From: Catajapyx aquilonaris
Lineage: Eukaryota
Direction: 5' to 3'
Assembly: GCA_000934665.2 (NCBI GenBank)
Contig: JYFJ02001649.1
Coordinates: 1 to 64,000, forward strand
DNA length: 64,000 nt
The first letter of the stretch is position 1, and each line of letters opens with the position of its first letter. This document shows positions 22,000 to 63,389 of this stretch, one piece after another. Below the pieces are notes generated by a model that ran no database searches, was not told where the DNA came from, and worked only from the letters and a program-made list of their open reading frames with translations. Made by a program: the position numbers and the translations under genes.

Positions 22000-22913
22000 A
22001 TGCAAGCTCCTTCTGCCTAACAAGCCCGGTGTCCGGCACATCATTTAGTACATGGCATCGGGGTAGTAGCATAATCCTGGTGTGTACTGCAACCGGATGA
22101 TCCGCATACACACTGTTGGTGCCTGTTGTGGAGCACATGACCTGCCCGCCATGTTGGTGCTCCTCTGCAGAAAAGCGCATTGCACCCCCTCGTGTATGTC
22201 CGCAACCACCCCCACCCCCTCGTCCCTCTTCCTCCCCTCCTGAAAGTACAAGGAGTGCAAGGAGGGAGGCCGTACATATATAAATATCCATCCGCCGTTG
22301 GCTGGCTGGCTGGCTGGCTGCTTCATCCCGACACCCGACCGCCCTGCCCGCCTCTCCTCCCGTGCGTGCGTGCGTGCGTGTGTTGTAAANATGCAAGCTC
22401 CTTCTGCCTAACAAGCCCGGTGTCCGGCCCATCATTTAGGTATATAGTCTGGTGACCCGGGGTAGCTTGCCCCCCTGGGGTAACTGGTTGTTTACTGCTA
22501 TCCTTTTACATATGCTGCCATGGTGATTGCCCCCGGGATAGCTTACCCGGGGTCATCAGACTAGGGGCCTTAGTACATGGCATCGGGGTAGTAGCATAAT
22601 CCTGGTGTGTACTGCAACCGGATGATCCGCATACACACTGTTGGTGCCTGTTGTGGAGCACATGACCTGCCCGCCATGTTGGTGCTCCTCTGCAGAAAAG
22701 CGCATTGCACCCCCTCGTGTATGTCCGCAACCACCCCCACCCCCTCGTCCCTCTTCCTCCCCTCCTGAAAGTACAAGGAGTGCAAGGAGGGAGGCCGTAC
22801 ATATATAAATATCCATCCGCCGTTGGCTGGCTGGCTGGCTGGCTGCTTCATCCCGACACCCGACCGCCCTGCCCGCCTCTCCTCCCGTGCGTGCGTGCGT
22901 GCGTGTGTTGTAA
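22000..22913. repeat. Tandem duplication of a roughly 390-bp segment joined at an N; probably two haplotypes assembled side by side
   Basis: 22000-22389 recurs at 22391-22913 almost identically, with N at 22390. The second copy carries an extra 131-bp insertion. Confidence 0.85.
22439..22569. mobile_element. PIF/Harbinger (Tourist-like) MITE, TTA TSD
   Basis: tta|GGtataTAGTCTGGTGACCCGGGGTAGCT ... AGCTTACCCGGGGTCATCAGACTAggggCC|tta. The empty site with a single TTA is at 22045-22047. Confidence 0.8.
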
Positions 22914-23421
22914 ACCCCCCTGCTGGCTGCATGGTCCTGACTGACTGACTCAACCGGGCCGACCATACCAGAGGTGACTCCAGGCTGCCTACTTGCATCC
23001 GTCGGCCACCATTCCTCCCTGGAGAGTTTTTGGGTTTGTTTCCCCCCTTCCCTTCCTCTCTCCCGCCTTCCTTCCTTCCTTCCGATCTTCTCTCCCTTCC
23101 CTCGCCCGACCCGTGGTCCTGCGGGAGAGGAGGAGGAGAATCCCATTCCCCCTCGGAACAGGCCCAGGTTGTGAGTACCTCCCCTTCCCCTCCGTGTGTT
23201 GAGAGGAGTGTGAGCCTGTACCGGCCAAAGAGTGGTCCAAGATTCCGGTCCCAAGTGCACCAGGCAGCTCCCAGGGCGCCTCCTCCTCCTCCTTTCCTTC
23301 CCCTCGCCCTGCCCTGTCCGCTGCCCAGGGGCCTGCCCCTGCCCCGACCCTTCCTCCCAACCCCCTCCAGCCCCGCGCCCAGACCCACGCTGCACTTCCT
23401 CCAGGGCAGGAGGACGGGAGG

Positions 23422-38191: not shown

Positions 38192-38570
38192 ACTTACACG
38201 CTTGCAGGTAACCTCCGCTGTTATGAAGCTAGTGGTTGGCGTGCACACCCATACAACCAGACCTCCGGTTTTTAACTACTTATTGTTCTACTCCATAAAA
38301 AAATACATGTATCCACACGTCGTCACGCACACGTCCGTTTGAAATTGCGCGATCGGGATAGTATCGATCAGTTCATGATTACAACTGGTGCTAGCTGCTA
38401 CTGGTGGTGGTAAGCAGCTACTTCAGCTACAATAGTGGCTACTTCCTTTGGCTACTTCAGCTACAATACTCCTTAATAGTGAGTCGATACTGACCTACTT
38501 GCCATTTTCGCTCCCTTTTCGCTCGTGGTCTGTGTTGCTGCTCTAGTGTGGTCAAATACTAGGAGAGGCC

Positions 38571-39011
38571 ATGGCGCAGGGGAAGCTGAAGGTGAAGGGG
38601 AAGGTCCCGGCCAGCCAGAAGGGCAAGAAGAAGGCGGGAAGAGGGGGCAGCGGGAAGAAGGGAGGGGGAGGAAGGGTGCAGAAGAAGAGACCCAGTGAGT
38701 ACCCCATTTGGTGTGGGTGCACCCAGCAGGGTTGAGCCAGCCCTGTCATTACCATTGCTTGTTCCTCCCGTTCAGATGCCCCGGTGGCTCCCAAGAAGTC
38801 CAAGATGGCAGAGAGGAGCAAGCTGAAGATGGCCGTCACAAAGGAGATCAACGTCAACATCGAGCAGACCCTCAGGGCCAGGGCAACGGGCAGCGGGAAG
38901 CCCCTGGCCATACTCAAGGACTCTGACGCCGCAGCCGCAGCCTCCACGTCCTCCTTTGCCACTGCAGCGCCAAGCAAGAAGAGGGGCAGGAAGGGAGGGA
39001 AGAAAAAGTGA
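38571..39011 (+). CDS. C19orf53: UPF0390 / Leydig cell tumor 10 kDa protein homolog (C19orf53-like), copy 1, 119 aa
   Basis: Exons 38571-38694 and 38776-39011. MAQGKLKVK...VAPKKSKMAERSKLKMAVTKEINVNIEQTLRARA...KPLAILK matches the family pattern. Confidence 0.82.
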
Positions 39012-40304
39012 TCTGAACAAGCCATCGTTTGCCACAACTTGTTTTATATCGTGTCTCAATGTAAGTTAATACTCTGTATCTGATCACTGTTACCACCAAC
39101 AGAGCCAGTGGATGTTGCCTCCACACAAATGTTAATCCACCTGACGATGGATGAATAGTTACACAGCTTTTCAAAGCCAACAGGGATGGACAGATCATCA
39201 CCAAAAAATCAAAATGTTAAACTATTTTTATCAATAATTGTGAACAAAGTTGTAGTTTTGTTTTTTAAATGTGCAATGCCCAAAACTACTGCAACTGCTC
39301 TACCACAGGGTTACAAGATGCACATTATTATTGTGCACTTCAATACTTTTTTAATAATGCTGCTTTTAAAGCCATATTGCGTTAATGCCCTTGTCGCCGC
39401 CGCCGCCTTCTGCTACAAATATTTGCCAATTCTTTGTGAAACCACTTTGATAGTTGGATTATATTAAGAACAAATACAAGTCCATGCTCAGCTGACGCAG
39501 CGATTCATATAATTATAGGTATAATTTTTTTGCAATCAACAGAGCAAGAAATATCTCATATTACCAGGCCATTTTAATGTACTTGTTACATGCCCATGGC
39601 ATTAATCCAGTACCAGTTTCAAGTAAACCGTAGGTAATTGGGGCATTACGTCACCAACTTCACTGATACATTAAAATAAGTAACAGCAAATTTGTTCTGT
39701 TTCTCATTGAAATTCTGCTTCTCATTTGTGCATCACTGGAGGCTATTGAAGCTGACATGATGTTGTAAAGCAAAGTTAAATTTGAGGATGCATATGAGAT
39801 CTAATTATGCATCATGAAGATTGGCAACTCCATTGTGGTCGCAAGTTTAAAATGTTGCCTAAAACATTAAAATGAAAAAAATGCAATAATGCCCTGTGAC
39901 AATCAAACGAGCTTAATGTGAAGTGGTAACGTAAGAAATACTTGTGTTCCAGTGAGAAGAGGTAACTACAATTATCATAAAGAGCAACATCAGGAGTCAG
40001 TAAATAAAGACACCAGTTTGCAAACATAAACATTTGTTACTGATTAAGCCTGTTACAATTGACATCTTATGAATAATAATATGATGTTGGGACTAGCCTG
40101 TGACAATAAATATTATGATACTTACAAGACAGATCTTAACCTGAGGCCAATCCTTCTGTCAGATCATGAAATGGCGACATTTACATAGGATCGTAGCTGC
40201 CATGTTATTGAGCTAGGCAGAACAAGGTCTTGACCAGAGTTGTTCCCTCATTCTAGCGTTCATTCTAACGCATTTGATTCCCAGTAATTCATGCCAGCCT
40301 CAGT

Positions 40305-43125
40305 TCAAGGTGTTGAGTTCTGAGAGTTCACATGGGCTCTCTCGTTTCCAGTTTCAATCTCTGTCGAGGTCTGCAAGAAAGATTGTAAAGGTCAGTTCCT
40401 GGTACTATCAGTCCACCAAGAATTGTCGTAGCGGCAGCGCACGAACTACACTCTACGAGCACTTCTCCATTGACTTCTCCCCCCCGGACGTGCTCGTAAC
40501 TGTAGTTCGTGCGCTGCCGCTACGACAATTCTTGGTGGACTGATAGGACATGGAATATGCAGAGGCATTTTCTTATAATTATGTCGCTGGAATCCACATT
40601 TGACTCAGAGAGACAGAGTTGGCCAGAAAAAGTTACCGACACCTACATCTCCTTGAAACACTGTATGCCTTGCTACTCTGTGTGCTATGTGGAATTGATT
40701 ATTTTGTGCCATCCTGACGACCACGCTGTCAACATTTAAGCAACTGCGTAGACATGATGCAGAGCACACCAAAATCTACTTCAGAATTTGCTTCTCAAGA
40801 GTTCCACGTATGAATGACACTACTGCTCCAAGGCGACGTAATCTTCTAGTCACCTTGCGGATGCATTACCTGATCTAACGTATCACTGTTTTGAAGCATG
40901 AGGTATTTGTGCTTGCGGTAGTATGGGCTGTCCTTCAGCAGGTGCAGGATGACCATATCACACAAAACACTTGTCTGGAAAAGAAAGAAGCCACAGATAT
41001 GTACAGTACAGTACAACAGCTTGATGCATCCTCATGCAGTGCATCACCCTGTGTAGGCTTTGCACTTACCAGTCCTAATAGTGCAATGCTGGATCCAATG
41101 TTGAGCAGCATAGTTGCGATACAGAACTTGCCTCCAGTTCCTTGAACATTGATTGCCAGCTTGATTCCAATCACTTTGTGCAGTGTTCGACGATGTACCT
41201 CATGATAATCAGCATACCTAAAATTGAAACCTGGAGATGGGGTCGAGGCTGGTTTATCCAGGCGGCTGAAAGTGTACTTTGGCAGGCAGTACTTCTGCAT
41301 GTCCCAGTCCAAGTTACAGTCCCATGTGATTGTCAGCGAAATCAGTGCACCCTGAAATAGTCATGCGGAATAGTCATTATTATCAATCGTTAGTTGGTCC
41401 AGCACCCTGTGCATGCGAGCCAAACAGTAGAAAATTGTTTTACAACATGAACCAGTCACAAGACGGAATTGGTCTTGCAACTGTCTCGTGCTCTTTGAGA
41501 AGAAAGCATGTCATGACAACGTACATGTAAGGCAATTTCTGAGTAATCCTCTTCTGCAGCAGATATAATGTCACCTAGTTTGAACACTGGGCAGTATGGG
41601 TGATCTTGTGGGTGGTACCTGCACGTTTGAAGGTATCTTTTGTCATTGCTATTTAAAGTGTTTTGATGCTTATAGGATGGGCCAAATACGGGGAAGAAAA
41701 TATTGTTTTTGATCATAAGGGTGAATTCCGTAGTTTCTTCTAGTATGGCGTAATTACTGATTGTTGGAAAGGGACTCTCCACAGGACACCATGCATGGAT
41801 CTCACATACATGAACCGAGGTGTTATGTGAACTGAGAATGCAGCGTCCAGTTGCCACCCCATTGCCAACCATGAATGGAGTGCCCTTCACACAGGTGTTA
41901 TTCTTAGGATCACATATTGCGCCAGGGGTATCTACAGCCTGAGTTTGACCAGAAAGTAAAACAAAGAAACTGTTGTCATTACTATGAAAGATCATAAACG
42001 AATACATCAAACTCTGGCTCACTTCATCACAAGTGCCTTGCGTCTGATTGGGTGTTATCATCTGGCTGGTCATGATGAAGACGGCTCCATGTTCTGCAGG
42101 TGGGATGACATAGTCTGCAACATCCCAAATACGATGATAGAGATGGTCAGATTTCCTGTGTTCATGTTTGTGAGTTCTTGCAAAAGGCTTGCTGTAGCTC
42201 ACGCCTTTCACTTTGGTCACCACCACACTTTCCACGCCTCCAAACTTCTGGTAGCCTTTCTGCCAAATCATCACATACCTGAGAAGAAAGATTGCTTCAT
42301 TACAACTGAATGAACTCGTGTGTTCCAAGAAGTTGTTTGTCATTGAATGTCTTTAAGAAATGCTATATTTGGAAGCTTTATCTTGCAGCACCCACACCTT
42401 GGCATTGAAAAATATGGCTAGTCGGCCTGATAGCAAATTGAGCAATGAAACGACATAACTGACAGGTATGCATGGGAAATGAAAATTCACTACATAAGTT
42501 GGTATGTTGGCAATGTTACGCAACAAAGCCATAAATATTTCACTAAACCGCTTGCTTATATTACGGGAGGCATCTCGTCAGGCCCTCCCAGCTGAGAGCA
42601 AATCTGAAACATTTGTTTTTCCTCACCCGCGGACATGTTATATGCTTACTCCTACACCTGCCAGTTTTTTGAGCCCACTTTGTAAACCATTTCAAGTTTC
42701 TTGCTACATCCACAGCATTGGCCAAAAAAACCACAAATGTTTACAATACAAACTGGGGGAAATATACAGCTCCAGAAATAACCAGCCCGGCACAGCAGAA
42801 GCAGCGGTACAGAGGTGAAGAATTAATTCTGCACTAATTATAATAAGTGACCATGAAGGAGCAAATCACATTTAATTTTAATTGGAGACACCACAGCTGA
42901 CCAGTGCATATGCTCCTCATCATTGAGTGGATATGAAGCCGTGCCGGATACTCACACAATAATGTAGGTGATAATGGAGAGCTGCACCAGCCGACCCAGT
43001 ACTCCTACTTTGGTGCTCTGGATGTGCATCTCCCGCGGTGTCTCATACTGGCAGAACTGCGCATAAAAGAATTCAGCCACACTCTTCTTGATGGCCGACA
43101 GACGGTCACCAGAGGAGCTCCTCAT
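40305..43125 (-). CDS. P2X purinoceptor, copy B, about 430 aa
   Basis: Exons 43125-42956, 42278-42023, 41938-41525, 41351-41070, 40974-40870, 40370-40305; 1293 nt in frame, same intron positions as copy A. Motifs QYETPR, VVTKVKG, RIWDVADYVIPP, CEIHAWCPVE, GFNFRYA, RTLHKVIGIK, LCD, YYRKHKY. Confidence 0.93.
40405..40546. mobile_element. Hairpin MITE, about 46-bp perfect TIRs
   Basis: CTATCAGTCCACCAAGAATTGTCGTAGCGGCAGCGCACGAACTACA ... TGTAGTTCGTGCGCTGCCGCTACGACAATTCTTGGTGGACTGATAG. Confidence 0.8.
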
Positions 43126-43332
43126 CCTTGACAACCAAGGTATAATGGCACGGTCCACGTCACCGGATGACACGCAGGCAGCCTAACCCAGACAGAGCGC
43201 AGCAGGATGCTGTTTGAATGAAGCTGGGCTTATACCATCGGGATGGAAGCTACTGCCATCATTAACTAATGTAGATAGCCGCTATCCTGCTTTCGATGGA
43301 ATTGCTGCGCTGTTTTCGACTCCATGGCGCTC

Positions 43333-43340
43333 TATCGATA
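43333..43340. promoter_or_regulatory. DRE motif (TATCGATA) in the short divergent promoter between P2X-B and C19orf53 copy 2
   Basis: Exact palindromic DRE within the roughly 340 bp between the two ATGs. A near-match TATCGATC lies at about 38363 in the copy-1 promoter. Confidence 0.45.
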
Positions 43341-43461
43341 CTGACCCTTCGTTTTCCTGTGATACTTTTGAGGGAAGCTTCGTTTGTGGCGCGCCCCGAA
43401 CCCACAGGTACAGCCAAGGTACAGCGATCGACGTTGGTTTGCAGGCCGATTTGGTGGAAGG

Positions 43462-43896
43462 ATGGCGCAGGGGAAGCTGAAGGTGAAGGGGAAGGTCCCG
43501 GCTAGCCAGAAGGGCAAGAAGAAGGCGGGAAGAGGGGGCAGCGGGAAGAAGGGAGGGGGAGGAAGGGTGCAGAAGAAGAGACCCAGTGAGTACCCCATTT
43601 GGTGCACCCAGCAGGGTTGAGCCAGCCCTGTCATTACCATTGCTTGTTCCTCCCGTTCAGATGCCCCGGTGGCTCCCAAGAAGTCCAAGATGGCAGAGAG
43701 GAGCAAGCTGAAGATGGCCGTCACAAAGGAGATCAACGTCAACATCGAGCAGACCCTCAGGGCCAGGGCAGCGGGCAGCGGGAAGCCCCTGGCCATACTC
43801 AAGGACTCTGACGCCGCAGCCGCAGCCTCCACGTCCTCCTTTGCCACTGCAGCGCCAAGCAAGAAGAGGGGCAGGAAGGGAGGGAAGAAAAAGTGA
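43462..43896 (+). CDS. C19orf53: UPF0390 / C19orf53-like, copy 2, 119 aa
   Basis: Exons 43462-43585 and 43661-43896; nearly identical to copy 1. Confidence 0.82.
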
Positions 43897-44462
43897 TCTG
43901 AACAAGCGCTGTTTTCTGATAAGTGTAGGTGGTTACAGGCTTGTAAAATAGTTACAACCAATTAATTGTTTTATGTAATTTTTCACTTAACCCATGGGGC
44001 CAGGAGTATTTTGGATTGTCACTTTTTAATAGGGGAAAGCACTAGGCTTCACGTAACAGCTAGCGAATTGCACACTATTGACCATGAAAGAGCCATTTTC
44101 ATCTTTCTTGGAGAACTACACAAACGTTCAAAGTCATGTTTTTGACAATGTGTACCTATGGTACAGGTTAAATCAATTGGTGAAGATCTTACATGGGCCT
44201 GCCTTGTTTCAGTACTTTTATTCCACCACGGAGGTCTTACTTCCCTTTTTTTACTGAAGGGAATGTTTTTGGTCTTATTGATTGTAGATGGACAAGAATT
44301 GGCACAAAAAAAATGTATATAAAAAGTATAACCTGAGCTTGCGTGACCGGATCTTGTGGTACCGGTACTCATTTATGTATACCATATCGTATTTTAGGGC
44401 CTGTAAATAATACTGAACACCTGCTCCAAAAGCATTTTCAAACAGACTAAGCAAGCAAAGGT

Positions 44463-46832: not shown

Positions 46833-48578
46833 TCATTTCTTCTTTTTCCCTTTCCCCCCCTTCCCTTTCCCCCCCTTGCCTTTCTTTCCTTTCTTCTTGC
46901 GGAACCGTCCAATCAGGTAGTACCATCGCCTCCAGAAGGCCTGGATCAAGAGCACTGCCCTAAGGCGCTTCTTCATCCACTGTTCCTCCAATATCCTCAT
47001 TTCCTCCCTCACTCGACGCTCTTCAATGATAGATTCATACTTCCCTTCCAGGTCTGAGCAGTGTATCTGCAGCTCCATGCACTCCTCCGTCTCCGTGTCC
47101 AGAAGGAACTGCAGTTTCTCAGCCTCCTCCTTCTTCTCAAACATGTCCTTGTCGTACTTGCGCACCCAGTTGCTGATCTCCGTCTCCAGACGAAGCTTTC
47201 GTCGGTACAGGCCCTCCAGGTAGTTCTCGTTGTTTTCCACCGTGCTTTCAAACCGCTGATGAGTGTTTCGTACTTCCTCCTGCAGCATCTTCTGGGTCTC
47301 GGCACTCTCGTTGGTGATCTCAAGCCGCGCTGTCTCCGCATCTTCGCAGAGCCGCTTCACCGATTCTCTGGAAACACGCTTGGCCATGTATATCTGGTGT
47401 TGCAACGTCCCCATGGTCTCATTCTGCATTCGGCGGGCCTTGGTCAGTGCTTCGTTCGCCTCTTCAATGTCCACCCTCAGCCTCTCAGAGGTCTCCACAT
47501 GTGACTTCTCCTGGATCCAGGCCTCGTACAACGTCTTCTGTCTGCGCTCTTTCTCCTCAGCCAGCTCCTGAAGACGCTGCCGACCGCACCGTCGCAGGTG
47601 ACGAAGAGCTTCTGCCAGATAGAGAAGAACCACTGACTCTTTCTTGGTCAGTTCCCTCTGGATGTTCTTCAGGACACGAGGGTTGTCGCGAAGGCCTCGC
47701 TGGACATCCCGGATGGCGTCGCGCATCTTCTGCCGGATGTCGATCTGCTCTTGCAACATGGACTCCTGATTCTGCCTCCATAACTCCGCCTCATGGATGT
47801 CCTCACTGCTCATGTCGTAGTCTAAGTCCTCATCGTCGTCAGGATCGTCATCCATCATATCGTCGTCTGAGTCTTCGTCAGTCAGATCGTCGCTGCCGTC
47901 TCGTTTCTTCCGCCTCCTCCTACGACGCTTCAGGCGCTTGGGTTGCGAGTCCAGCATGGCCTGCTTCTTCTTTAGGTTGATGTCGTCCCTCAGGCCGTAG
48001 TGGAGGCGAATTAAGGCACGCTCTATTTGTGTCCCAACCAGGTCCACCCATGGTTCCTCTCCTGGGGTGAACCGTCCCTCAAACACTTCTGGAAGGAGCG
48101 CCGGCATTGTCGCCAGCATCTCCAGCTTGTGGGCAGCTTCCTCCATCACCCTCAGGATCTTCTGTGCCTCTGGAGCCAACTGCTTCTCCCTCCGGTAGTC
48201 CGGAATCATGCGTCCTTCCATGGTCAGCTTGGCCTTGACTTTAGACTTGGTCGCCTTGTCCTTAGTTGGTGCCCTACTGGCCTTTCGAATTTCTACCAGA
48301 TCGGCACCTTCCTCCTCCTCCTCTTCTTCCCCCACTGACCCTACCCTCTCCCGTTCTTCCTTCTCCTTCTCCACAGCCGACTTCTTCCGCTCCTTCTCAC
48401 CACTGGCTTCCTCTCCCTCTACCTCTTCGTCGCTCTCATCTTCGTCGCTGGTTGGTGTGACCAGTGATGTCCTGCTGGTGGACGAACAGACGTCATCCGG
48501 CTCATCTTGATCATGGTCGTCCTGCCCATCGTCTGGACCAAACACCTTGACCTTTGTACCTTTATCGCCATCCGCCAT
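46833..48578 (-). CDS. DRC10: Dynein regulatory complex subunit 10 (IQCD-like), single coding exon, about 581 aa
   Basis: Long coiled-coil ORF with RRKLRLETEISNWVRKYDKDMFEK, an IQ motif (AVLLIQAFWR) and a KKKGKKGKGGKGK tail, typical of IQCD/DRC10. First ATG at 48578. Confidence 0.82.
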   Translation of the reverse strand: MADGDKGTKVKVFGPDDGQDDHDQDEPDDVCSSTSRTSLVTPTSDEDESDEEVEGEEASGEKERKKSAVEKEKEERERVGSVGEEEEEEEGADLVEIRKASRAPTKDKATKSKVKAKLTMEGRMIPDYRREKQLAPEAQKILRVMEEAAHKLEMLATMPALLPEVFEGRFTPGEEPWVDLVGTQIERALIRLHYGLRDDINLKKKQAMLDSQPKRLKRRRRRRKKRDGSDDLTDEDSDDDMMDDDPDDDEDLDYDMSSEDIHEAELWRQNQESMLQEQIDIRQKMRDAIRDVQRGLRDNPRVLKNIQRELTKKESVVLLYLAEALRHLRRCGRQRLQELAEEKERRQKTLYEAWIQEKSHVETSERLRVDIEEANEALTKARRMQNETMGTLQHQIYMAKRVSRESVKRLCEDAETARLEITNESAETQKMLQEEVRNTHQRFESTVENNENYLEGLYRRKLRLETEISNWVRKYDKDMFEKKEEAEKLQFLLDTETEECMELQIHCSDLEGKYESIIEERRVREEMRILEEQWMKKRLRAVLLIQAFWRRWYYLIGRFRKKKGKKGKGGKGKGGKGKKKK

Positions 48579-49587: not shown

Positions 49588-50038
49588 ATGTGGGGAATTA
49601 AACTGGTGGTGCTGCTGGTTGCAGTCATGCTGGTAGGTAGGTTTTGTTCTGTGCTTAACAGTTTAACAGTGGTGTTGCCTGCAGGTGACTGAGATGGCTG
49701 CTGGTGCCAAGAAAGAGCGACGGCGACGACTCCGACTTGGTAACCGTCCTCTTCAGCACCAGCTGCAGAAGCAGGTTCCGACTACAACCGAGCCAGTGAC
49801 TACCACCAGCACGACCACCACAGTTCCTCCCGGATTCGAAGATCTATCGGACACCCTGGACGTGCACCAGTCGGACGCATCGGGAGAGCCCAACGCCCAG
49901 AACCCTGTCCTGGAGGATGAGCTGCGTTCCAGTTGTCAGGGAGAACCAGGATGCACCTGGGAATGCACCAGTGCAAAGCAGCCCACAGGGGCACACCATC
50001 GCCGCCAGCAGCAACTATGCACATGTCACTGCAAGTGA
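49588..50038 (+). CDS. Orphan secreted protein A (signal peptide, basic patch, Thr-rich linker, C-terminal 6-Cys module), about 132 aa
   Basis: Exons 49588-49632 (MWGIKLVVLLVAVML) and 49685-50038, phase-0 GT-AG. Ends CQGEPGCTWECT...CTCHCK*. AATAAA at about 50191. Confidence 0.72.
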
Positions 50039-50529
50039 GAAAACTGTATCTAAAGTGTTGGGCTTCTGAATACGTGGCACTATGAACTATATAGTGTCAG
50101 AGTCTATTTCTATTAATAACTACCTGACTTGTGATTTTTTTTTTCACTCCACGAACAAGTGTCGATTCTGTAACAGAGGAAATGAGTAACAAATAAACAA
50201 CAATTAGACTGAACACTATAATAGAGGACACCGTTCATACGATCGTATAATAGTGCTCGAATATAGATGGACGAGCCCGTTATGTATTTTTATTTACTAT
50301 TGGCATTCTGCAGTTTTAACTCCTAGAAATTGAGAAGTTTTGAGCATCAATGTGTCTCAAGAACTGCCGGCACCAGCAGGTGAGTGATACTGTACCTATT
50401 GTAGGCGAATGGTTAGCGTCACCTCTTGGCTCTTGCTAATTGTATAGAATCCGACAGGGGGTATCATTAAAAAAAATTGAATTGGTAAATAGGCTAGACC
50501 TTCTGATTGCCACATGAAAGCAAGTGCAA

Positions 50530-50605
50530 GCTGGCCATGCTAGTAGCGCTCTCGACTCTCAATCTAGGGTTCCGGGTTCAAATCCCGGGTGAGAGCGAGT
50601 AAAAA
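50530..50605 (+). mobile_element. tRNA-derived SINE head
   Basis: ...TAGCGCTCTCGACTCTCAATCTAGGGTTCCGGGTTCAAATCCCG (B box). A related reversed copy lies at about 51555-51630. Confidence 0.45.
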
Positions 50606-51769
50606 TATTTGTTGCCATCAGTGCCATCAGGCGGAGCATCCTCTTCATCTTCCGGGTCAAGAAGGGCAAAGAAGATGAGAGGGGCACTGGAGGGAGGGGT
50701 GGGGAAGAAGAAATAAAAATATTTTTATTTCTGACATGAAAATAGACTATCTTAAACCGCGTCGACGATCTGCGCATCCCCACCCACAGCGGGTGGGGAT
50801 TTATTATTTTATTAATCCATATAGAGCCATGCGTCCATGCCACGAAACAGTGATGCCGAATGACAGTTCTGATGATCCCGAGGAGGTCACGATGACCACT
50901 CGCCTACGTCACATTCATACTGATACTTGCCAACTATGTTTGGCTAGCCCACTGCTTCACATCGAGAGATATACTGTATATCTATGTACTGTGCTATGTA
51001 CAGTCTCATTACGAAAGATCCGACAGATGGAGAACGAGGTAGGCCCTGGCCCCTGACCAAAAACCTAATATTAGGGCCTTTTAGGTCAAAGGTCAGCCTG
51101 CAACAAACCATTGAAAATGCCCTAAAAATTGTGCCGAATCATTTGCATGTGCTGGTGATTTTATTGGACCTATAGTTAAATTTCTGGGAGTAAGTTTTTG
51201 GAGGGGTGATAGGTTTGAGAATGGACCTCCCAGGTATAAGGTAAATGCACCCACTTGGGCAGTGGTAGGGTGGGGGCTGGGGATGGCCCACACAAACCGG
51301 AATTCTTCAATTTTTGAATGATTAAATTTAAGACTTTTTTCTTCGAAAAAAGTGACCGCCCCCTCCCATTAAGCAGGTCTCTTAAAAATTTCCAAAAAAA
51401 TTTTCTCCCCTCCCACCCTTTCCTCCCCCTCTCCACACCTCCCCCCCCCTCCTCGCTGCTCCTCCGACACCTACCACTGAAGAAGTGTTGGGGAAACTGC
51501 GAAGAAACAGTCGCCATCTTGGCCAGAGATGTCGGCTGCAAATTTTTTTTTTTCTGACTCTCAACCGTGGAGATTCGGGATTTGAACCCGCATCTCCCGA
51601 TTGAGAGTCTCATACGCTACCACAGACCCACGCTCTGAGGCAACGAAGTTGTGAGTGTTGGAAGGGTCTAGCCTATTTACCAGATGCACTTCAAAGAGAA
51701 ATAAATATGCAATGAGAGATGAAGTAACACCGAGAAAGGTCTATAGCGATAAAAAGAAACGACGTCCTT

Positions 51770-51840
51770 TTTTGCAGGATTCGATCCTTCAACCTTCAGG
51801 TTACGTAGCCGACGGCTTAGCCACTGGACCAATACGCTAC
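51770..51840 (-). mobile_element. tRNA-derived SINE head or tRNA pseudogene
   Basis: Minus strand TGGTCCAGTGGCTAAG (A box) and GGATCGAATCC (B box); no intact acceptor stem seen. Confidence 0.45.
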
Positions 51841-52607
51841 TACGACACTCACACTCTCTCGTGCATGTACTTATTGTAAAGAAAGGACGCAATTACTCCA
51901 AGTTGAGCTAATGAGTAATGACTCATGACTGGCAAGAAAATTTTAATTACCTCATATAGGAGAGTGGTTATTACCTTCAGGGTTAGATACCTGCTATGGC
52001 ATTTATTTTTCTATACTTCAGTGAAATATTAGTGGGACACCACTTCTCTCTTCCATTTATTTTGGGGCGCAACTGCGTATGTGGTGAATGCCAAGCACAT
52101 TAGGTCGGCTACAACAAACCTGCTAAGCATAAAAACATATCCAAAGCACTCGTTACAAACGAATATGCTACATATGGTGAAAAGATCCCCCATATTACAT
52201 AAGCCGACTCGAATGTTTACAACCATTCCGTTGACAACAAGGCGTGGGAAATACATATCAATACACCAGCTAGTTCCAGCACACAACTGATAGTAAACTC
52301 ACGCAAGGACTCCCCTATTGATCAGTTTATTCATAAACATGCATAGAGTACCACGAGCTGCAATGTCATCGTCCAGTCATCGAAATGATCCATCCAAAGC
52401 CACTCACTTGTTGCCGGAAATCTCATTAGAGACGAACCTTCCTTCCTATACCAGGGCGATGACAGATCAGTGACGCCATGCAGGTCACTCTCTTGACCTT
52501 TAATCTCTTCAGTGCCACCCCGGTGATTAACACCCGATGATGTGCTTATTTATTTCCCACGGGTTTCGAACTCATCGGTGGTTTGTGAGTAAATATGGAG
52601 GGATTGG

Positions 52608-52615
52608 TATATAAA
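52608..52615 (+). promoter_or_regulatory. TATA box of orphan secreted gene B
   Basis: TATATAAA about 30 bp upstream of an initiator-like TCAGT (52638) and 45 bp upstream of ATG 52653. Confidence 0.6.
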
Positions 52616-52652
52616 GGAGGGCAGCTAAGAATACAGATCAGTTATCCTCAGC

Positions 52653-53532
52653 ATGCGTAAGGGGGCAGAAAGAAGCGGACAAAAGCATCAGTTTTTAGTG
52701 GGTGTGCTCTTCATCATGGTCATGGTAAGTATATCCACGGCATAACCATTATTGGATAAATGCAAATTGTTAATACGTCGCAGGCTATTAACTTCCACGA
52801 AGACGAATCGTTCATGCTGCCACGGTTCTCCGGGTTGAAAAAGATCTTTCGAGGTCCATCATCTTTGCTACCTAGCAACATCAACGTGGCCAAAGGCAGC
52901 AAGGTGAAACAGTCCAGCTTCCTACCGGACATGTCTTTATTTAGCCGAAGACGTGACCCAGGTGCCACCGCGGACACTACCTCGCTGATTCGTCGTGGAA
53001 GCAACCCAGCTGACACCAAGAGATTTGGTCTCTTCGGAAGATGGCTACCAAATGGTTTTAGGAAGAAGCAGTTATCATCCCCAGTGGCTGCAGCATCGAC
53101 CGACAAAAACAGGTAGGATAATCATGTGGCAGTAGTGACCAGTCCTCATGATCTCTCTCCAACAGCAAGGCCCTCGATGGTGCGGAGGACCAAGTGAAGA
53201 AGAAGAGTAAGCTGCGCTTCCTGACCCCGTTCAAGTACGGATTCCATGCCCTTCGCCTGGCTCCATTTGCGTCATCTCTCCTGCTGGCTCGCAGCCACGC
53301 CAACTCGTCGGAGAGCCTACTTGACGGTGACACCACGTCGACTCCGGATGACCAGACAGACGTCACGGACCTTGTTGAGGAAGAAGGGGCTTACGAAGCG
53401 GAAGTGCGGCAGGAGAAGGACAAGTGCCTGAGGAAAACGGAGTCGTCAGCGAAGAAGGCCGATTGTCGTTGGGTGTGCACCGGCAACGAGACCATTGAAC
53501 TCCGACGGTGCTGCCTTTGTCCACTTTCGTAA
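52653..53532 (+). CDS. Orphan, probably secreted protein B (basic/Phe-rich segments, acidic spacer, C-terminal 6-Cys module), about 255 aa
   Basis: Exons 52653-52724, 52784-53112, 53166-53532 in frame; hydrophobic N-terminus FLVGVLFIMVMA. Ends CLRKTESSAKKADCRWVCTGNETIELRRCCLCPLS*. Confidence 0.7.
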
Positions 53533-54504
53533 CAACCTCCTGGGAATCGGCGCATTGCGAATGTGATAATTTGTCAGCCACAGTATTATTTATAAATATT
53601 TCAGTTCTCCAGGACTGCATTTGACGAGGTCCATTCTGCAAAGAAATGTTGGGCCATATTGTGTTTATATGTACTGAATCATGTGAAATATGAATCAAAT
53701 TAAATACAATTTTATTATTTCATCACCCTTGCTTCTGGATCATTCACATGTGAGAGCAATAAGTGTCTCATTTGCATGTCCAACAGTCACATCCGCAAGA
53801 GTCATATGAACTACTGGTACCTGAAAGAGCATCTGTAATAATTATTCCATTAAATAATTCTACATGTGAATGACTTGATTAGTCCAGTAGTTGCTTCAAT
53901 GGTGCACAAGCTGAAGGTAAGAGTGTAATTTTGATTATACATGTGATCTACTCCATGTTTATAGTTTTCAAGGGCACCAAAGGACATTGAGAGCAGAGCA
54001 AGAGCGGAAGAAGTCCATTGGCTGACTGATTCGATTCAATCAATCCATCAATCCTTCCCTCCCCTTCTTCCCTCCCCTACCATCATCCATTTATCTGTAA
54101 CAACCCACCCTGGCCGCCACAACCTTCCAAATCCAACTGCTGCTGCTGGACTTCAATTGCAGCACAGCCGGTCAGTGATTGCGCTGCTGTATGTGCTGTA
54201 TGTGTGTCGACCACTACCATCTCTGGCGCCGGCGTTGATTACTGTCCATCATCCTTAAACACGTTCACCTCCTCGAGTTACACCCTTGTTGCCAGTGGTG
54301 TCTCATCCTGTGGCGTGAGACTACGTCAGTCAAGTGTCGCTGGTGTCAGCAGGTACAACTTGTGACTGGATATCTGAAATTGCGGAAAAGTGAGTGTGTA
54401 AGTGGCCAAAAAATTTCACTACGTCTGATGGTAAGATTCATCTGCACGTCGTAATATCTACAATACTTGTATGACGTCAAGCCTGAACTGTATGGTAAGT
54501 CAGT

Positions 54505-54700
54505 GTCGTATACGACAGTATGTGACGTATACGACGTATACGACGCCGTATACGGTTGTATACGTATACGTATACGACGATTTATACGGTTGTATACGTA
54601 TACGGCATAATTATGACGTATGCGACGTATGACGTATACGACAGTATACGACATATGACGTATCCGACAGTATACGACATATGACGTATCCGACAGTATA
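54505..54700. repeat. Low-complexity minisatellite of GTATACGAC/ATGACGTA-type units
   Basis: Reiterated TATACGAC, GACGTATAC and GACAGTATACGACATATGACGTATCC. Confidence 0.75.
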
Positions 54701-54932
54701 TGATTTATTCTGGCTTGAACCCTTCCCAATCAGCTAACATGCAGGTTAGAGACCTTAGCTTAACACTATAAGCATTACATAAGTGGTGTTCAAATGCACA
54801 TGACAAAAAGGTCATTGCTTGGCCCTCACTTGTCAATGTACGCATACTCAACAGTCTCGGGTTTAAGAGTTTAATAATTCGTATCATATATTAGACAAAT
54901 GCAAATTTTTAAGGGCAGTTTCCGGTGCAGCC

Positions 54933-56141
54933 ATGAGATCGTCTGTTGCAACGGTACTGCTGCTGGCAACTCTATTGGCACTGCTGAGAGGACCTGGCGT
55001 GCACGCGAGAGATGGCGAAGAGGACACACTCCAGGAGAACTTACTGGACACCATCATGATATCTCCCTGGAAGTTTATCCAGCCTCCTCACCATCTGCCT
55101 GCACCTCTTGCATACCAAGACGAAGATTCCAGCATGGATGAAGGAATGGGCAGAATCGGGAGAGTCCACACCCCTGGTCCTCTTCATAAGAAGGAGTCGT
55201 TGCGGAACACCCTGTGGCTGCCACGTCCACTCACCCACGTAGACTACGCTTACCGACATCACAACCAGGAGCATGAACAAGGCTACGGAAATCTTCACAG
55301 GACCAGATATTCAAGTATAGCAAGGAGGGTGATTTCATATAGGAATGTTCCCTACTAATGTGCGCTTTGATTTGCAGCCGAAGATGACACTCCTCTGGAG
55401 GAAGGTGCCGAAGAAGAGCAGAAGCCAGCTGAGGACTTGTGGGATGAGTCACTGGTTCCAACCGCCAGCAGTGACATAAGCTCGTGGGAATCATCAGAAG
55501 AGGATGGGGCTGACGACAATGGTGAAGACGGAGAGGAGGACGAAGAAGAGGACGAGGACGCAAGAGAAGAAGACAAGCTGGAGTCATCCTCATCGTCATC
55601 TTCGTCATCTTCGGCACCGTCATCATCAGAGGAAGAGTCGACAACTACCAGTGCACGTATCCGCAACAGTCGCGCAAGAGCTAACCGTCGACGACTATCC
55701 GAGTGGTTCGACTGGCACATGAGTAACTGCCATTCCTCAGAAGCCAGCAACCGAAGCTGTCGATGGGTCTGCACAGACAGAAAGAGGAATCCTTGGGGCT
55801 TCGGTTGCTGCAGATGCAAACCAATCACCACCACCTCCGCCCCTACCACCACCATTAGCTCTCCTGTATCACAACGTTCATCCATGCTTCTTCTGCAGCC
55901 ATTCCTCATCCCTCTCCTGCATCCCTCCTCACCCATGGGCCAAAACAAGGGACCAATCATGACGACAACTCCATCCGCTTCTGCCCAAAAAGTTCCACCT
56001 AGAGCAGCTCAGGATGAACTCAGCTTTTTGCTATTGCGTCCCAACAAAGTAAGCCATTCCGCTGAAGAAGATGACGGTGATATGAATCAGAATATGATGC
56101 AACACAACAATTTGCTTCTTGAGAGAAAGCGACGACGCTAA
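54933..56141 (+). CDS. Orphan secreted protein C (signal peptide, His-rich, acidic and poly-Ser tracts, 6-Cys module), about 381 aa
   Basis: Exons 54933-55314 and 55378-56141 (phase 1). Signal MRSSVATVLLLATLLALLRGPGVHA; module CHSSEASNRSCRWVCTDRKRNPWGFGCCRCKP. AATAAA at 56285. Confidence 0.72.
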
Positions 56142-56597: not shown

Positions 56598-57618
56598 ATG
56601 CAAGCCTGGATACTGAATCTACTGTTGGCAAGCACACTACTGATAGTGACCAGTGGTTTTCCCACAAAAATTCATGAGCTTCAAACAAAACTGGTAAGTG
56701 TTACTCTATGTAGCATGTGGACCATATCACATTGTTTCATGTTCTTATCAGGAAGGTGGGTCAGAAATTGTCGTACCTTCACCATCGACAATCCCAGATG
56801 AAGAAGTGACAGACCTCTTTCGACTGACAAAGTCGGAGAAGAAGGCATGGCGAAGGGAGAGGAGGAAGGAAAGGAGGCGAGAGAGAAGGAGGAAGAGAAA
56901 GATGCGTCGTATGATGAAGATGACCAAGAGGAACAGAGTAGGCAGAGGAATATTCACTCCGGATCCACCCAAGATCAACGTGAGCCTCAACGAACTCTTC
57001 GGGACTACAACACCTCCCCCTGCCTTCTCAGCATACTTCCAGCCGAAGAAGCACGTGCAGACAGCAGTGTTCCTGTGGCCGGTAGTGTCCTTCTCGCATG
57101 CAACAGCCCAGGCCATCGCAATCACCGGGAACATCCCCACCGGCACAGCACGGGCCGAAAGAGCCAGGTTGAAGTTGGCCCAAAGTGGCCAGAAAGTGGC
57201 GGACAAGATCAACAGAAACAAAGAGAAGCCTCAGCAGCCGACCCAGAAGCCTCATCCACGTCTTCCTCAACCACCACCACCACCGCCGCCTCCTCCTCCT
57301 CCTCCCCCTCCACCACCGCCTCCACCTCCGCCTCCTTACCCTCCTCCCCAGCCCCATCAGCCCCCTCGATGGAACAATCAGTACGACAAGTACGGCCGTG
57401 GTAAGCCCACACCAGGAGGTCCTCAGCAACCATGGAACAGGGGGAACACCCAGCAGCAACACCAGTACGGGAGGAACAGGCAACCACAGAGATACCCTAC
57501 CAACCAATACGACGGACAGTACATCAAACAGCATCGGTACAACCAACACAACAAGAATTACCAACATGGCGGGCGCTCACCAGAACCACATTATTATAAC
57601 TCTGACGAACCGCGATAA
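56598..57618 (+). CDS. Orphan secreted protein D (Arg/Lys tract, 22-residue polyproline, Q/N/Y/G-rich tail), about 320 aa
   Basis: Exons 56598-56693 (MQAWILNLLLASTLLIVTSG...) and 56752-57618, phase 0. Mixed-codon polyproline at 57271-57336. Confidence 0.72.
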
Positions 57619-58384: not shown

Positions 58385-60637
58385 ATGGCAAGCTGCTTGT
58401 TAAGAATGGTCAAGTCTCCTCTGGTGATGGTAGCAGTGATGCTCGTCATGGTTAGTCATTAGCTTATAAGCTTCATAGCAATGTTGGCTGTGGGAGCTTA
58501 GGCAACAGTGCAACAAGGTGTTCCAGAGTCGAATATGCAATTTTTAAGCTCCTTTACTAACCAGACACACAGGTGGAACAACAATCAAAATGCACCGGAC
58601 TATTATTAGGGCAAAGGTGTTTCTTTTGTAAATTGATTCTATTGATCCCGGCATCTGAGCAATGATGTAATGAAATATTAATATTGAGAATTACGTTTCA
58701 AATTTTGTCGCTATAATTTCAACCAAGTTGCTAAACTATAGTGACGTGATTGTTTTCAGGCGAGTGTGATGGTTGACGACTGTGAAGGTGGCAGAGTAGG
58801 CGGAAGAGGAGGAGGCGGAAGAGGCGGCGGGGGAGGTGGTGGAAGAAGGGGCGGAGGCGGGTCAACGGGAGGTCACGGCACCGGAGGGTCGTCGGGAGGA
58901 ACCATCAGCCACGGAGGGTCAGCTTCAGCAGGAGGAGGGGCTGGCTGGAACACGGGTGGAGGAGGGTCGTCGTCTGGAGGATCAAGTGGTGGTGGACATC
59001 AGGTGCCTTCAGGGGGGTCAGGAGGTCAAGCGGCAGGCGGAGGAGCTGTTGCTGGTGGTGCGGCTGGAGCAGGTGGTAATTATGGCTGGAGAGACTCAGG
59101 AGGTCAAGGGGCCGGAGGAACGTCGGGTCAAGGGTCTGGAGGGGTACCTGGACAAGGGGGAGCTGGTGGACCAGGCAGATGGAGAGATCCAAGTCAAGGA
59201 GGAGCAGGAGGTCAAGGGGCAGTAGCACCACCAGGTCAAGGGTCTGGAGGGGTACCTGGACACGGGGGAGCTGGTGGACCAGGCGGATGGAGAGATCCAA
59301 GTCAAGGAGGAGCAGGAGGTCAAGGGGCAGTAGCATCACCAGGTCAAGGGCCAGGAGGAAACTATGGGTGGAGAGATCAAGGAGGTCAAGGGGCACTACC
59401 TGGTCAAGGGCCTGGAGGAGCTGGTGGACCAGGCGGATGGAGAGATCCAAGTCAAGGAGCAGGAGGTCAAGGAGGAGTGGCACCACCACCAGGTCAAGGG
59501 CCTGGAGGAAACTATGGGTGGAGAGATCAAGGAGGTCAAGGGGCACTACCTGGTCAATGGCCTGGAGGAGCTGGTGGACCAGGCGGATGGAGAGATCCAA
59601 GTCAAGGAGGAGCAGTAGGACCACCACCAGGTCAAGGACCTGGAGGCAACTATGGGTGGAGAGATCAAGGTCAAGGGGCAGTACCACCACCAGGTCAAGG
59701 GCCTGGAGGAAACTATGGATGGAGAGATCAAGGAGGTCAAGGGGCAGTACCGGCACCAGGTCAAGGGCCAGGTGGAAACTATGGGTGGAGGGATCCAGGA
59801 GGTCACGGCGCAGGTCACCGTCCAAACCAGCCCCAATGGCACGACAGAGATTCAATAAACAGGCAGGGGAGCAGTAGCAACAACAGAGGTCAATGGCAGC
59901 ACGGTGGAGGAGGCTGGTCAGGAGCTGGTGGCTATGGGCACAAACCAAAAAGTAGCCTCACCAAAAAATTAGCGGAGAAGGTCAAGGACACTTTTGCATT
60001 TCCAGGGAAGCACACCAGGGGCACTGTGTGGGGCGGAGGTTATGGCTATCACAACAAGCAGTACCGCCCGTCGTACCACTCTGGATGGAACACAGGTGGC
60101 AGTGCACTAGGAGGACTCATGCATGGTGGGCATCATCCTTGGGGTGCTTATGCGGGCACAATTGGAGGAGCCTACGTCGGATACCAGCTGGGTTCCAAAG
60201 TGTCCAAGAACATCCATCGCTTCATGTATGCAAGACCCAGCGTGTGGATCATTGCCAGCAGCAGCAGCCACGGCTGGCAGTGGAGGAGACGACACCGCGA
60301 CAATCGACATGACCCACTCAGATTTCACGGACACCGATTCTACATGCGACATTGGTATGGAAGTCACGTGCTGGAAGATAAATATGATTGGAACCTGGTT
60401 GGCATGGACATCAGCAATAGCACCAATGCGACACTTACTGACGACACAGAATTGTCAACCACTACTCTTCGACCAGGAATGCCTGTATGTGATTGGAGGA
60501 AGCAGCCACTATACTGCGCTGGTCTCGACTGCGCACAAGTGACAGAATATGACAAGCTACACTTTTTGCCATTCCATTGTTGCCATAAGCTCAGTCTTTC
60601 CATGCGGAACTGCCTCGATTTGGGAAATGACATTTGA
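58385..60637 (+). CDS. Orphan secreted Gly-rich repeat protein E with PrP/Shadoo-like layout and C-terminal 6-Cys domain, about 647 aa
   Basis: Exons 58385-58450 (MASCLLRMVKSPLVMVAVMLVM) and 58760-60637, phase 0. RGG N-terminus, ten WRD repeats, KPKSSLTKK, AGTIGGAYVGYQLGSKVSK, sequons NST and NAT, six Cys. AATAAA at about 60698. Confidence 0.8.
59073..59805 (+). repeat. Coding tandem repeats GQGPGGNYGWRDQGGQGA and GGAGGPGGWRDPSQG
   Basis: Ten WRD-centred units of two types, with TGGAGAGAT-type cores. Confidence 0.9.
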
Positions 60638-62088: not shown

Positions 62089-63389
62089 TTATTACAGAAA
62101 TTTTGTCCTCCCCAACCCTTTGTTAGTGTAACAATCGGATGGATTGTAGTTCGCAGCAGTTCGCAGTCATTTTGAAAATCCGCCACGTCACGAATTCCGT
62201 CCACGAGCCATGCGCGGATTGGCTACCCTCGACCAATGACGAGACAAACAGGGTTGGAAGAGCAGTATTGTATGTGGCAGGTTCAGCAGCAGACGAGCGA
62301 AACACTGGATCCATCATCAGGTACGGGCGGTACCTGCGACGGTCTGGGGATCAGCACGTCCAGGGAAAGGTCAGTGGTGACCCCCAGCAGGTCGCTTAGG
62401 AGTTATGTCGAGTTGGTGACACAAGGTTACGGGATACGGTACGGGTGTTGTAGGAAGCTGGTGACCTCGTTACATGTACCCATCTTCTGAGAGATTTTTT
62501 TTTTTTGAGAGGTTAGGATATGCTCAGGACATCCCCCAGGACCTTCGTTTAGCATGGGAAGTAAGCTGACTTTCACCCTGCCACACCCACTACACCTGCG
62601 GAGTACATTTTTTAAAAAACCATTGTTGCAGTCAGCTGTGACCTTTTTGCAGGTTGCCCATTTCGCAAATATTAAGTCCGTGCCACAAAAAGTACTATTG
62701 CACGTAAGCAATTTACCAACAGTAATACCGTTACAACCTCTATTGTTATTCCAACACCTGTGACCTACAACTTGATAAGGGTATAAAAATTGGTCTGAAT
62801 TTTTCAATTGGCAATGCTGTGTAAACAAGCACTCCTGCAAATTGTGGCTGGCAAGGACATTCCGGCCAAAGATTCCGGCAGCAATCTGGCTGCGCACACA
62901 CACATCCTGGGCGTCATGTTAGTACCCTTTTGCCTGCCTCACATATATATTTTTTTATCTTTCCTTTGCATACCCCCCCCACACCTCCCCTGCATGCATC
63001 CCTATGATGTAAGCATTCATATACACCCATAAAAAGGAGGAAGGGAGCTTCGTGACTTATTCAACTAAAACTGACATGCGGCTTTTTCTTTCAAAAGTTT
63101 CCTTTGTTGATGTTGGGTCACGTGATTATTTTCCTAAATGTCTTGTGCCTGCCTGGGTGTTTGCCAGTGGTTGAGACAGACCATGGGAAGGGGCTTTCCC
63201 AATGACAACCTGGGGGAGGAGGGATGAGGGGGGGGGGGGGTTGCCTGGCACCTGTCCATGGATACCAGCATCATGCAGGGTTTGTTGTACCCTTTTTTAG
63301 GTGACAAAAAAGAGCAGGAGCATTGCCACTGACAAGAAGCAAGTCATCTAGTCCAGAGGAACAGCGGTAGAGGTACAGAGACAGTCGAG

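Follow-up and report, generated by a model that had tools for sequence, protein, structure and literature searches.

Positions 49,588 to 56,141 of a 64,000-nucleotide (nt) window of Catajapyx aquilonaris DNA (contig JYFJ02001649.1 of assembly GCA_000934665.2; the window is the whole stretch that was analyzed) raise the question of whether the three consecutive genes they contain, designated here A, B and C, encode a common protein module built around a CxWxCT motif and, if so, what kind of protein carries it. An earlier note on this DNA had answered that these are adjacent orphan genes of a locally duplicated, fast-evolving family, which share an unrecognized six-cysteine module and deliver it as a small three-disulfide peptide. 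The locus starts at the ATG of gene A and ends at the stop codon of gene C. The module reads C-x5-CTWECT-x16-CTCHC in gene A (six Cys at 49934-50032), C-x12-CRWVCT-x9-CCLC in gene B (six Cys at 53425-53520) and C-x9-CRWVCT-x10-CCRC in gene C (six Cys at 55728-55817), in all cases on the plus strand, and the three patterns and spacings originally reported proved exact when compared with the listing of open reading frames (ORFs) and the raw sequence. In the six-frame translation of the 64-kb window, C.W.CT occurs three times, at 49952, 53464 and 55758 only, and each of these sites lies within a full six-Cys pattern. Shuffling within 200-bp blocks yielded a mean expectation of 0.12 occurrences, and three occurrences were reached in 0 of 300 shuffles; the full six-Cys pattern was likewise seen in 0 of 300, a figure that is illustrative, the pattern having been defined post hoc. 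The CxWxCT pattern of A, B and C is hence confirmed as real and non-random. Each of the spliced proteins contains exactly six Cys, all inside the module and spanning 30-33 residues, and this even number, with none outside the module, fits three intramolecular disulfides. A search with a profile of the module across the 1,637 window ORFs of at least 25 amino acids revealed no fourth copy (next best match, E=0.82).

Gene models were obtained by locating splice sites by eye and then checking by script that the resulting models were open and bounded by GT-AG. Exon 1 of gene A (49588-49632) supplies the ATG and a hydrophobic, signal-type segment of 15 codons (Kyte-Doolittle maximum of 3.63 in an 11-residue window over the first 30 residues), and is followed by a phase-0 intron of 52 nt (49633-49684, CTG/GTAGGT ... 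CTGCAG/GTG). Exon 2 (49685-50038, through the stop codon) encodes a polybasic sequence (KKERRRRLRL, 49709-49738), a Thr-rich run, an acidic stretch and finally the module (49904-50035), which comprises a predicted helix, the strand CTWECTSA and a strand ending in CTCHC at the extreme C-terminus of a protein of 132 amino acids; an AATAAA lies 154 nt past the stop. The model of gene B is based on ORFs, splice signals and hydropathy. Its 24-codon exon 1 (52653-52724) contains the ATG, a charged n-region and a hydrophobic segment, and precedes a phase-0 intron of 59 nt (52725-52783, ATG/GTAAGT ... TCGCAG/GCT). Exon 2 (52784-53112) is basic and Ser/Leu-rich, with several di-/tribasic sites (RRR at 52946-52954), and after a second intron of 53 nt in phase 2, exon 3 (53166-53532, through the stop) encodes an acidic stretch and the C-terminal module of a 255-residue protein, with an ATTAAA 167 nt past the stop. 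In gene C, exon 1 (54933-55314) carries the signal peptide and N-terminal region, and the sole intron, of 63 nt and phase 1, follows residue 127 (CAA/GTATAG ... TTGCAG/CC). Exon 2 (55378-56141, through the stop) begins with a half rich in Asp/Glu and poly-Ser, continues with the basic site RANRRR (55677-55694) and with the module, to which a conserved helix segment belongs on the N-terminal side (55695-55829), and ends with a Thr-rich run, a tail rich in Pro/Leu and RKRRR at the C-terminus; the protein is 381 amino acids long and an AATAAA lies 144 nt past the stop.

All three genes are on the plus strand within ~6.5 kb. Each has its own ATG, signal-type N-terminus, stop codon and poly(A) signal, as befits the three separate adjacent genes first described, and the possession by each of its own stop followed 144-167 nt downstream by AATAAA or ATTAAA makes them three transcription units rather than one gene. 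The polybasic sites said to lie upstream of the modules are also present (KKERRRRLRL in A, SRRR and KR in B, RANRRR in C). Hydropathy analysis indicates strongly hydrophobic, signal-like N-termini in the three proteins and no later transmembrane-like window, and the proteins are presumably secreted.

Support for transcription comes from a single protein, P0001, which was the one candidate returned and the sole protein scored in a word-indexed search with the module of C as query. P0001 has 423 amino acids, originates from a 2,563-nt contig of an assembled-read source and is collinear with the gene C model from the Met to the basic C-terminal tail and stop; judged by this alignment, it is the ortholog of gene C. 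Its sequence is uninterrupted across the predicted junction of gene C (residues RTRYS-T-EDD), and such continuity over a phase-1 junction confirms the weak-looking CAA/GTATAG donor and implies that the contig is derived from mRNA. The ortholog of C is spliced and expressed. The module block (55695-55829 in gene C) matches P0001 in 43 of 44 residues with no gaps, whereas identity in the aligned columns of the flanks, which also contain indels, is 62/138 in the N-terminal region, 69/123 in the acidic/Ser region and 49/131 in the tail (37-56%), and the comparison of the two sequences shows strong constraint on the module in this pair. P0001 again contains exactly six Cys, all in the module. Conservation of the Cys/Trp pattern in orthologs had been singled out as a point on which the module could fail, and the one ortholog found, that of gene C, keeps every one of the six Cys as well as the Trp and the Thr. 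The description of the family as fast-evolving is borne out only by the contrast between flanks at 37-56% and module at 98% identity in this one species pair. No ortholog or transcript of A or B was found among the 138 candidates of a module-alignment search or in a profile search of 1.84 billion representatives.

The module was also compared with known domains and sequences. Pfam searches with the exons of A, B and C, including the N-terminal exons, and with the neighboring genes returned nothing significant, and the three modules, searched together with the C-terminus of the downstream gene E (see below), matched 0 families at E≤10. For P0001 and for the downstream genes D and E, only sub-threshold compositional Pfam matches were obtained (BSP_II, 18.1 bits versus a cutoff of 25.1). 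The module profile produced a single chance match among PDB sequences (E=3.8) and no usable match in the ESM Atlas. A word-indexed search with a four-row module alignment scored 1 of 138 candidates, namely P0001, and an exhaustive profile search of the 1.84 billion representatives gave two matches at E≤0.001, P0001 and P0002. The latter (E=3.6e-4) consists of a repeated GTWVCGGAY unit without the six-Cys pattern and was judged spurious, leaving no relative of the module beyond P0001 in protein sets of 5.8 billion and 1.84 billion sequences. None of the motif strings of the module (CxWxCT, CRWVCT, CTWECT) was found in a literature text search, which is the sole basis for calling the motif unpublished. 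Within the resources searched (Pfam, PDB, ESM Atlas, the protein sets and the literature) the module is, at the level of sequence comparison, undescribed. Since neither Pfam (0 families at E≤10) nor the sequences and folds of the PDB provided a match, it remains as unrecognized as the earlier note had it, the orphan status of the genes is borne out in the protein sets searched, and the Pfam search brought to light no match to a known family such as defensin, knottin or WAP, an outcome that the earlier note had named as refuting.

The evidence that the three genes form one family differs between pairs. A, B and C follow one another on one strand, and the motif is equally placed relative to the other Cys in all of them. 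CRWVCT is shared by B and C with three synonymous codon differences (CGT/CGA, GTG/GTC, ACC/ACA), and blastn detects no DNA similarity among the five loci A-E (best, a 24-nt match at E=0.002); the retention of the peptide with synonymous differences, at a point where DNA similarity is gone, suggests an old duplication with selection on the peptide. Local duplication is likely, as had been claimed, but the duplication would be old, with its nucleotide similarity erased. The remainder of each protein, described at the outset as unrelated, indeed lacks detectable similarity in the flanks by blastn and pairwise BLASTP. B and C align by pairwise BLASTP over 27 residues (E=0.004), a phmmer search with C as query retrieves B at E=0.044, and the two are treated as paralogs. 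Such alignment scores are weak and do not by themselves demonstrate homology. The best BLASTP alignment between A and C covers a 10-residue core only (E=0.29), and neither B nor C was among the five best matches of a phmmer search with A as query. In leave-one-out profile searches of the 1,637 window ORFs, B was recovered at E=0.18 only. A is a probable but unproven third member of the family, its inclusion resting on motif, position and context and not on alignment statistics.

Structure prediction was carried out with AlphaFold2 (AF2). For module C, using a three-sequence alignment, the model comprises a helix (residues 2-10) and two strands (21-30 and 36-42), one over CRWVCTDRKR and the other over FGCCRCK, with a mean predicted local distance difference test (pLDDT) score of 63. 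For the exon-2 protein of gene A, predicted from the single sequence, a helix at 74-85 ends at Cys1 and is followed by strands at 90-97 and 109-116, the first of which is CTWECTSA and the last of which ends in CTCHC. The blocks of this module have pLDDT values of 86, 75, 57 and 88, against 48-70 elsewhere, and the 73 residues before it are predicted without secondary structure (pLDDT 48-70). The two separate runs agree in predicting a helix and a Cys-bearing two-stranded hairpin on a disordered chain, and we infer the fold of the module together with its disulfides.

The explanation put forward here, tentatively and with somewhat less than even confidence, is that the module is a new small helix-hairpin domain, locked by disulfides, through which otherwise disordered secreted proteins of a matrix- or glue-like kind would bind or assemble. 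A, B and C would constitute an old tandem family of secreted, largely disordered proteins, rich in Thr, Ser, acidic or basic residues, whose chains are probably glycosylated or phosphorylated. The sole folded element of each protein would be a domain of ~40-45 residues in which a short helix ending at Cys1 is followed by a two-stranded hairpin, with C-x-W-x-C-T on one strand and C-x-C at the end of the other, locked by three intramolecular disulfides. This domain would act as a shared handle for binding or assembly, possibly also for cross-linking, within some extracellular material (a matrix, glue, cement or mucus, for instance), to which the variable disordered regions would contribute charge and bulk. 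The furin-type site in C would probably split the acidic N-terminal half of that protein from the module-bearing half, and the downstream genes D (basic, Pro/Gln/Tyr-rich) and E (Gly/Trp/Tyr repeats) may belong to the same secretory toolkit. We infer both this cleavage and the role in a material.

Several points weigh against this explanation. Expression support is limited to the ortholog of C, and A and B are known from gene models. A and C were both absent from the five best matches listed for the leave-one-out profiles, and since these profiles miss the omitted paralog, the membership of A is statistically unproven. AF2 confidence is modest (mean pLDDT 63 and 62.5, from alignments of three sequences or one), and Foldseek comparison of the two models with the PDB gave 2 and 115 matches at E≤10, with best E-values of 8.1 and 2.6 and 0 matches at E≤0.001. 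Genes D and E are linked to A-C by adjacency and gene structure only. Lastly, an acidic stretch followed by a mildly cationic module (net charge of -8 and +1, respectively, in A, and of -11 and +3 in B) would fit a prepropeptide equally well.

A family of prepropeptide precursors, from which a cationic three-disulfide peptide (antimicrobial, toxin, pheromone or hormone) would be released, is the likeliest of the alternatives, though a doubtful one, and concerns mainly C. The combination of a signal-type N-terminus, an acidic stretch and a mildly basic Cys module is of the right kind, the module stands at the very C-terminus in A and B, and the predicted Cys-paired hairpin recalls disulfide-laddered hairpin peptides. 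Furin-type cleavage is moreover plausible in gene C, since RANRRR (RAQRLR in P0001) abuts the conserved block, ending exactly at its start, 11 residues before Cys1. The module of C is, however, internal: it is followed by ~107 residues with no further basic site until the C-terminal RKRRR tail, and in the absence of a cleavage site 3' of the module the product would have ~148 residues and would not be a small peptide. In gene A, RRRR comes directly after the signal segment, ~70 residues before the module, and in gene B the di-/tribasic sites, numerous as they are, all lie upstream, with only a single Lys or Arg nearest the module and no Gly-basic amidation signals. The proposal that the family delivers a small three-disulfide peptide fits poorly and is not supported for A or B, which lack a di- or polybasic site next to the module. 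The features of a prepropeptide are distributed among the proteins: C and P0001 alone have a basic site beside the module, A and B alone have the module at the C-terminus, and no protein combines all the features. No defensin, knottin, WAP, ShK or conotoxin model was matched in Pfam at E≤10.

The divergence of the flanks may also be read differently. Fast-evolving reproductive or recognition proteins (seminal, egg-coat or gamete), in which the module would form a receptor-binding knob on a glycosylated stalk, would account for the lineage restriction of the genes, for flanks strongly diverged and with indels around an almost invariant module, and for the mucin-like Thr runs found beside the modules of A and C. 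The sequences give no specific indication of a reproductive role, though, and this reading is considered distinctly unlikely. It is also quite improbable that the resemblance is in part due to convergence or chance, with B and C being paralogs but A being unrelated, or with A and B not being real genes. The failure of the leave-one-out profiles and of the five best phmmer matches to include A, the BLASTP alignment of A and C over a 10-residue core at E=0.29 and the failure of the protein set searches to yield a transcript or ortholog for either A or B would all be expected in that case. Yet the C.W.CT motif, at 0.12 expected per window, is present in three consecutive genes on the same strand, in the coding frame, with Cys1 upstream, C-x-C downstream and all six Cys of each protein accounted for; the models of A and B include canonical GT-AG sites, start with a signal-type N-terminus and are followed by a poly(A) signal, and the AF2 topology of A is that of C. 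It is very improbable that the Cys cluster coordinates a metal (Zn or Cu), as metallothionein does, and forms no disulfides. The CC and C-x-C elements, and the C-x-C-H-C of A, which also has three His, do resemble metal-binding spacings, but the signal-type N-termini lead one to expect folding in an oxidizing compartment and the His residues are not conserved (A has 3, B has 0 and C has 1).

Gene C is directly followed by two further genes on the plus strand. Gene D (56598-56693 and 56752-57618, plus strand) is a two-exon model encoding 320 amino acids, with a signal peptide, a Lys/Arg block, a run of ~26 Pro and a Gln/Asn/Tyr/Arg-rich tail, and without Cys or the module. Gene E (58385-58450 and 58760-60637, plus strand), also a two-exon model, encodes 647 amino acids that include a signal peptide, an RGG/Gly-rich N-terminus, about ten Gly-rich repeats containing GGNYGWRD together with Trp/Tyr (at 59097-59813, where the tandem repeats have periods of 66, 108 and 150 nt), a Gly/Ala-rich hydrophobic stretch and NST/NAT sites. 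Its C-terminus bears a C-x8-C-x4-C-x15-CC-x9-C cluster with the Cys framework of B and C, and gene E was not among the listed matches of the module profile. Neither D nor E contains a Pfam family. The layout of gene E loosely recalls the architecture of prion protein, a likeness without Pfam, PDB-sequence or homolog support: its comparison with PDB sequences yielded a single chance match (E=0.5) and not the prion protein, and a word-indexed search with its C-terminal domain scored 0 homologs of 1,195 candidates.

In A, B, D and E, but not in C, a phase-0 intron follows right after the hydrophobic core of the signal peptide (56694-56751 in D, 58451-58759 in E), and A, B and E have similar-looking signal segments, although the similarity is not significant (BLASTP E-values of 0.23-2.9). 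The five genes A-E lie on the plus strand within 11 kb, and their compositions range over Thr runs, poly-Ser and acidic stretches, poly-Pro, Gly repeats and polybasic patches. From its sequence, the locus appears to be an array encoding secreted low-complexity proteins that are specific to the lineage and fall into opposite charge classes. A more far-reaching version, which is regarded as unlikely, would make A-E an undescribed invertebrate secretory "material" locus in which the strongly acidic, poly-Ser protein C could assemble by charge, in a coacervate-like fashion, with the basic, Tyr/Gln/Pro-rich D and the Gly/Trp/Tyr-repeat protein E, the CxWxCT helix-hairpin represents a new fold family used as a docking or cross-linking unit, and the Cys cluster of gene E is a far-diverged copy of the module.

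Further features were observed in and next to the array. A 14-mer, GAYAAATGCAAATT, occurs twice on the plus strand, at 52755-52768 in intron 1 of B and at 54894-54907, 39 nt before the ATG of C, and the octamer ATGCAAAT contained in it is found 14 times in the window, against 5.2 expected, a count reached in 0 of 100 shuffles. These sequences may represent a shared regulatory element or chance, the 14-mer pattern having been defined post hoc. Between genes B and C lies a compound microsatellite of GTATACGAC-like units with periods of 10-42 nt (54503-54700). Directly upstream of A, on the minus strand, a single-exon ORF of 581 amino acids (46836-48578) encodes a protein that is acidic and coiled-coil-like, has an IQ-type motif as well as a Gly/Lys tail, and matched no Pfam family at E≤1. 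On the far side, a Cys-rich ORF of 163 amino acids on the minus strand (62427-62918) has no Pfam family and is possibly a small secreted gene.

The window is animal nuclear DNA, and its other parts hold several recognizable genes. An ataxin-2 gene with large exons occupies 27300-31600 on the plus strand, with Pfam SM-ATX at 27300-27761, PAM2 within 29857-30909 and a long (CAG/CAC)n Gln/His run at ~29080-29230. Two tandem P2X receptor genes were identified with Pfam on the minus strand (34297-34773 and 40935-42352); the best match of a P2X exon is the tick P2X structure 5f1c, at 171.5 bits, and the best vertebrate-type P2X4 scores 145.7, as would suit an invertebrate; flies are not known to possess P2X genes, so that a fly is an improbable source. 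Near-identical ORFs at 38552-39043 and 43332-43961 (minus strand) indicate a duplicated block, and an inverted pair of similar ORFs is present at 36498-36902 (plus) and 37074-37409 (minus). Pfam also detects an RRM exon in the window. A GC-rich island at 21947-23486 (GC of 0.575 in 22001-24000), with long overlapping ORFs on both strands, two of which contain X, apparently holds the three N bases of the window and is probably a repeat or CpG-island-like. Over the whole window, Rfam gave 0 matches and no tRNAs were present.

Lineage-restricted Cys-rich secreted families are common in invertebrate genomes, and for that reason the present finding alone answers no long-standing question. A-C is a lineage-specific Cys-rich secreted family of a familiar and fairly ordinary sort. 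If the autonomous fold is real, the module would define a new small disulfide-rich domain family, and its profile would provide a handle on rapidly diverging secreted proteins that cannot otherwise be aligned, much as the conserved ends of fly glue proteins do. Should the array encode adhesive, matrix or host-defense peptides, it would be of interest to biomaterials or immunity research.

Among known systems, several Cys-rich frameworks invite comparison with the module. The CS-alpha-beta defensins and scorpion-type toxins share with A, B, C and P0001 a total of six Cys arranged as an upstream Cys, a C-x3-C and then a C-x-C, in what would likewise be a small cationic secreted domain of helix and strands. 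In the CS-alpha-beta fold, the C-x3-C is part of a helix fastened to the C-x-C strand, and a hairpin turn several residues long intervenes between Cys4 and Cys5. In the module, by contrast, the Cys4-Cys5 spacing is 0 (B and C) or 1 (A), AF2 places the C-x3-C on a strand, albeit with modest confidence, the domain is embedded in proteins of 132-381 amino acids, and neither Pfam (E≤10) nor Foldseek lends support; the near-zero spacing and the predicted strand at C-x3-C argue against membership in this group. The knottin framework is C-C-CC-C-C, with the adjacent pair at positions 3-4. An inhibitor cystine knot was rejected on these grounds, the adjacent Cys pair being at 4-5 in B and C and missing in A, and no Pfam toxin or knottin model being matched. 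The WAP four-disulfide core, with eight Cys, was rejected as well, each protein having only six Cys and no Pfam match.

Peptides of the tachyplesin, gomesin and hepcidin type form a disulfide-laddered beta-hairpin, and conotoxin framework XXIII has the order C-C-C-CC-C; in both groups, short precursors give rise to released peptides of 17-45 residues. The predicted two-stranded hairpin with Cys on both strands resembles the former, and the C-C-C-CC-C order of B and C resembles the latter. The likeness is not accompanied by sequence or profile similarity, however, and release is unsupported for A and B.

The architecture of the locus as a whole may be compared with the glue genes of Drosophila. 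There, Sgs3, Sgs7 and Sgs8 form a 4.5-kb tandem cluster encoding proteins with conserved Cys-bearing ends and variable Thr-rich middles (PMC6352337; PMC8643421), a phase-1 intron interrupts the signal peptide (PMC6352337), fly glue proteins were retrieved across species mainly via their conserved C-terminal part (PMC6352337; PMC8643421) and inter- as well as intramolecular disulfides between the cysteines of the glue are suggested by the authors (PMC6352337). The likeness to the Sgs3/7/8 group (with Sgs1) encompasses a tight tandem cluster of secreted proteins (4.5 kb in the fly versus ~6.5 kb for A-C and 11 kb for A-E), a short conserved Cys-bearing part combined with variable Thr/Ser/Pro-rich regions, and a short intron in the signal peptide. 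The two differ in that there is no sequence relationship between them, with Pfam New_glue reaching 12.5 bits versus a cutoff of 31 in P0001 only and nothing in A, B or C, and in that the signal-segment intron is in phase 0 in A and B versus phase 1 in the fly genes, with none at that position in C. By design, the Drosophila Sgs cluster is the closest analogue of this locus, and it is an analogue only.

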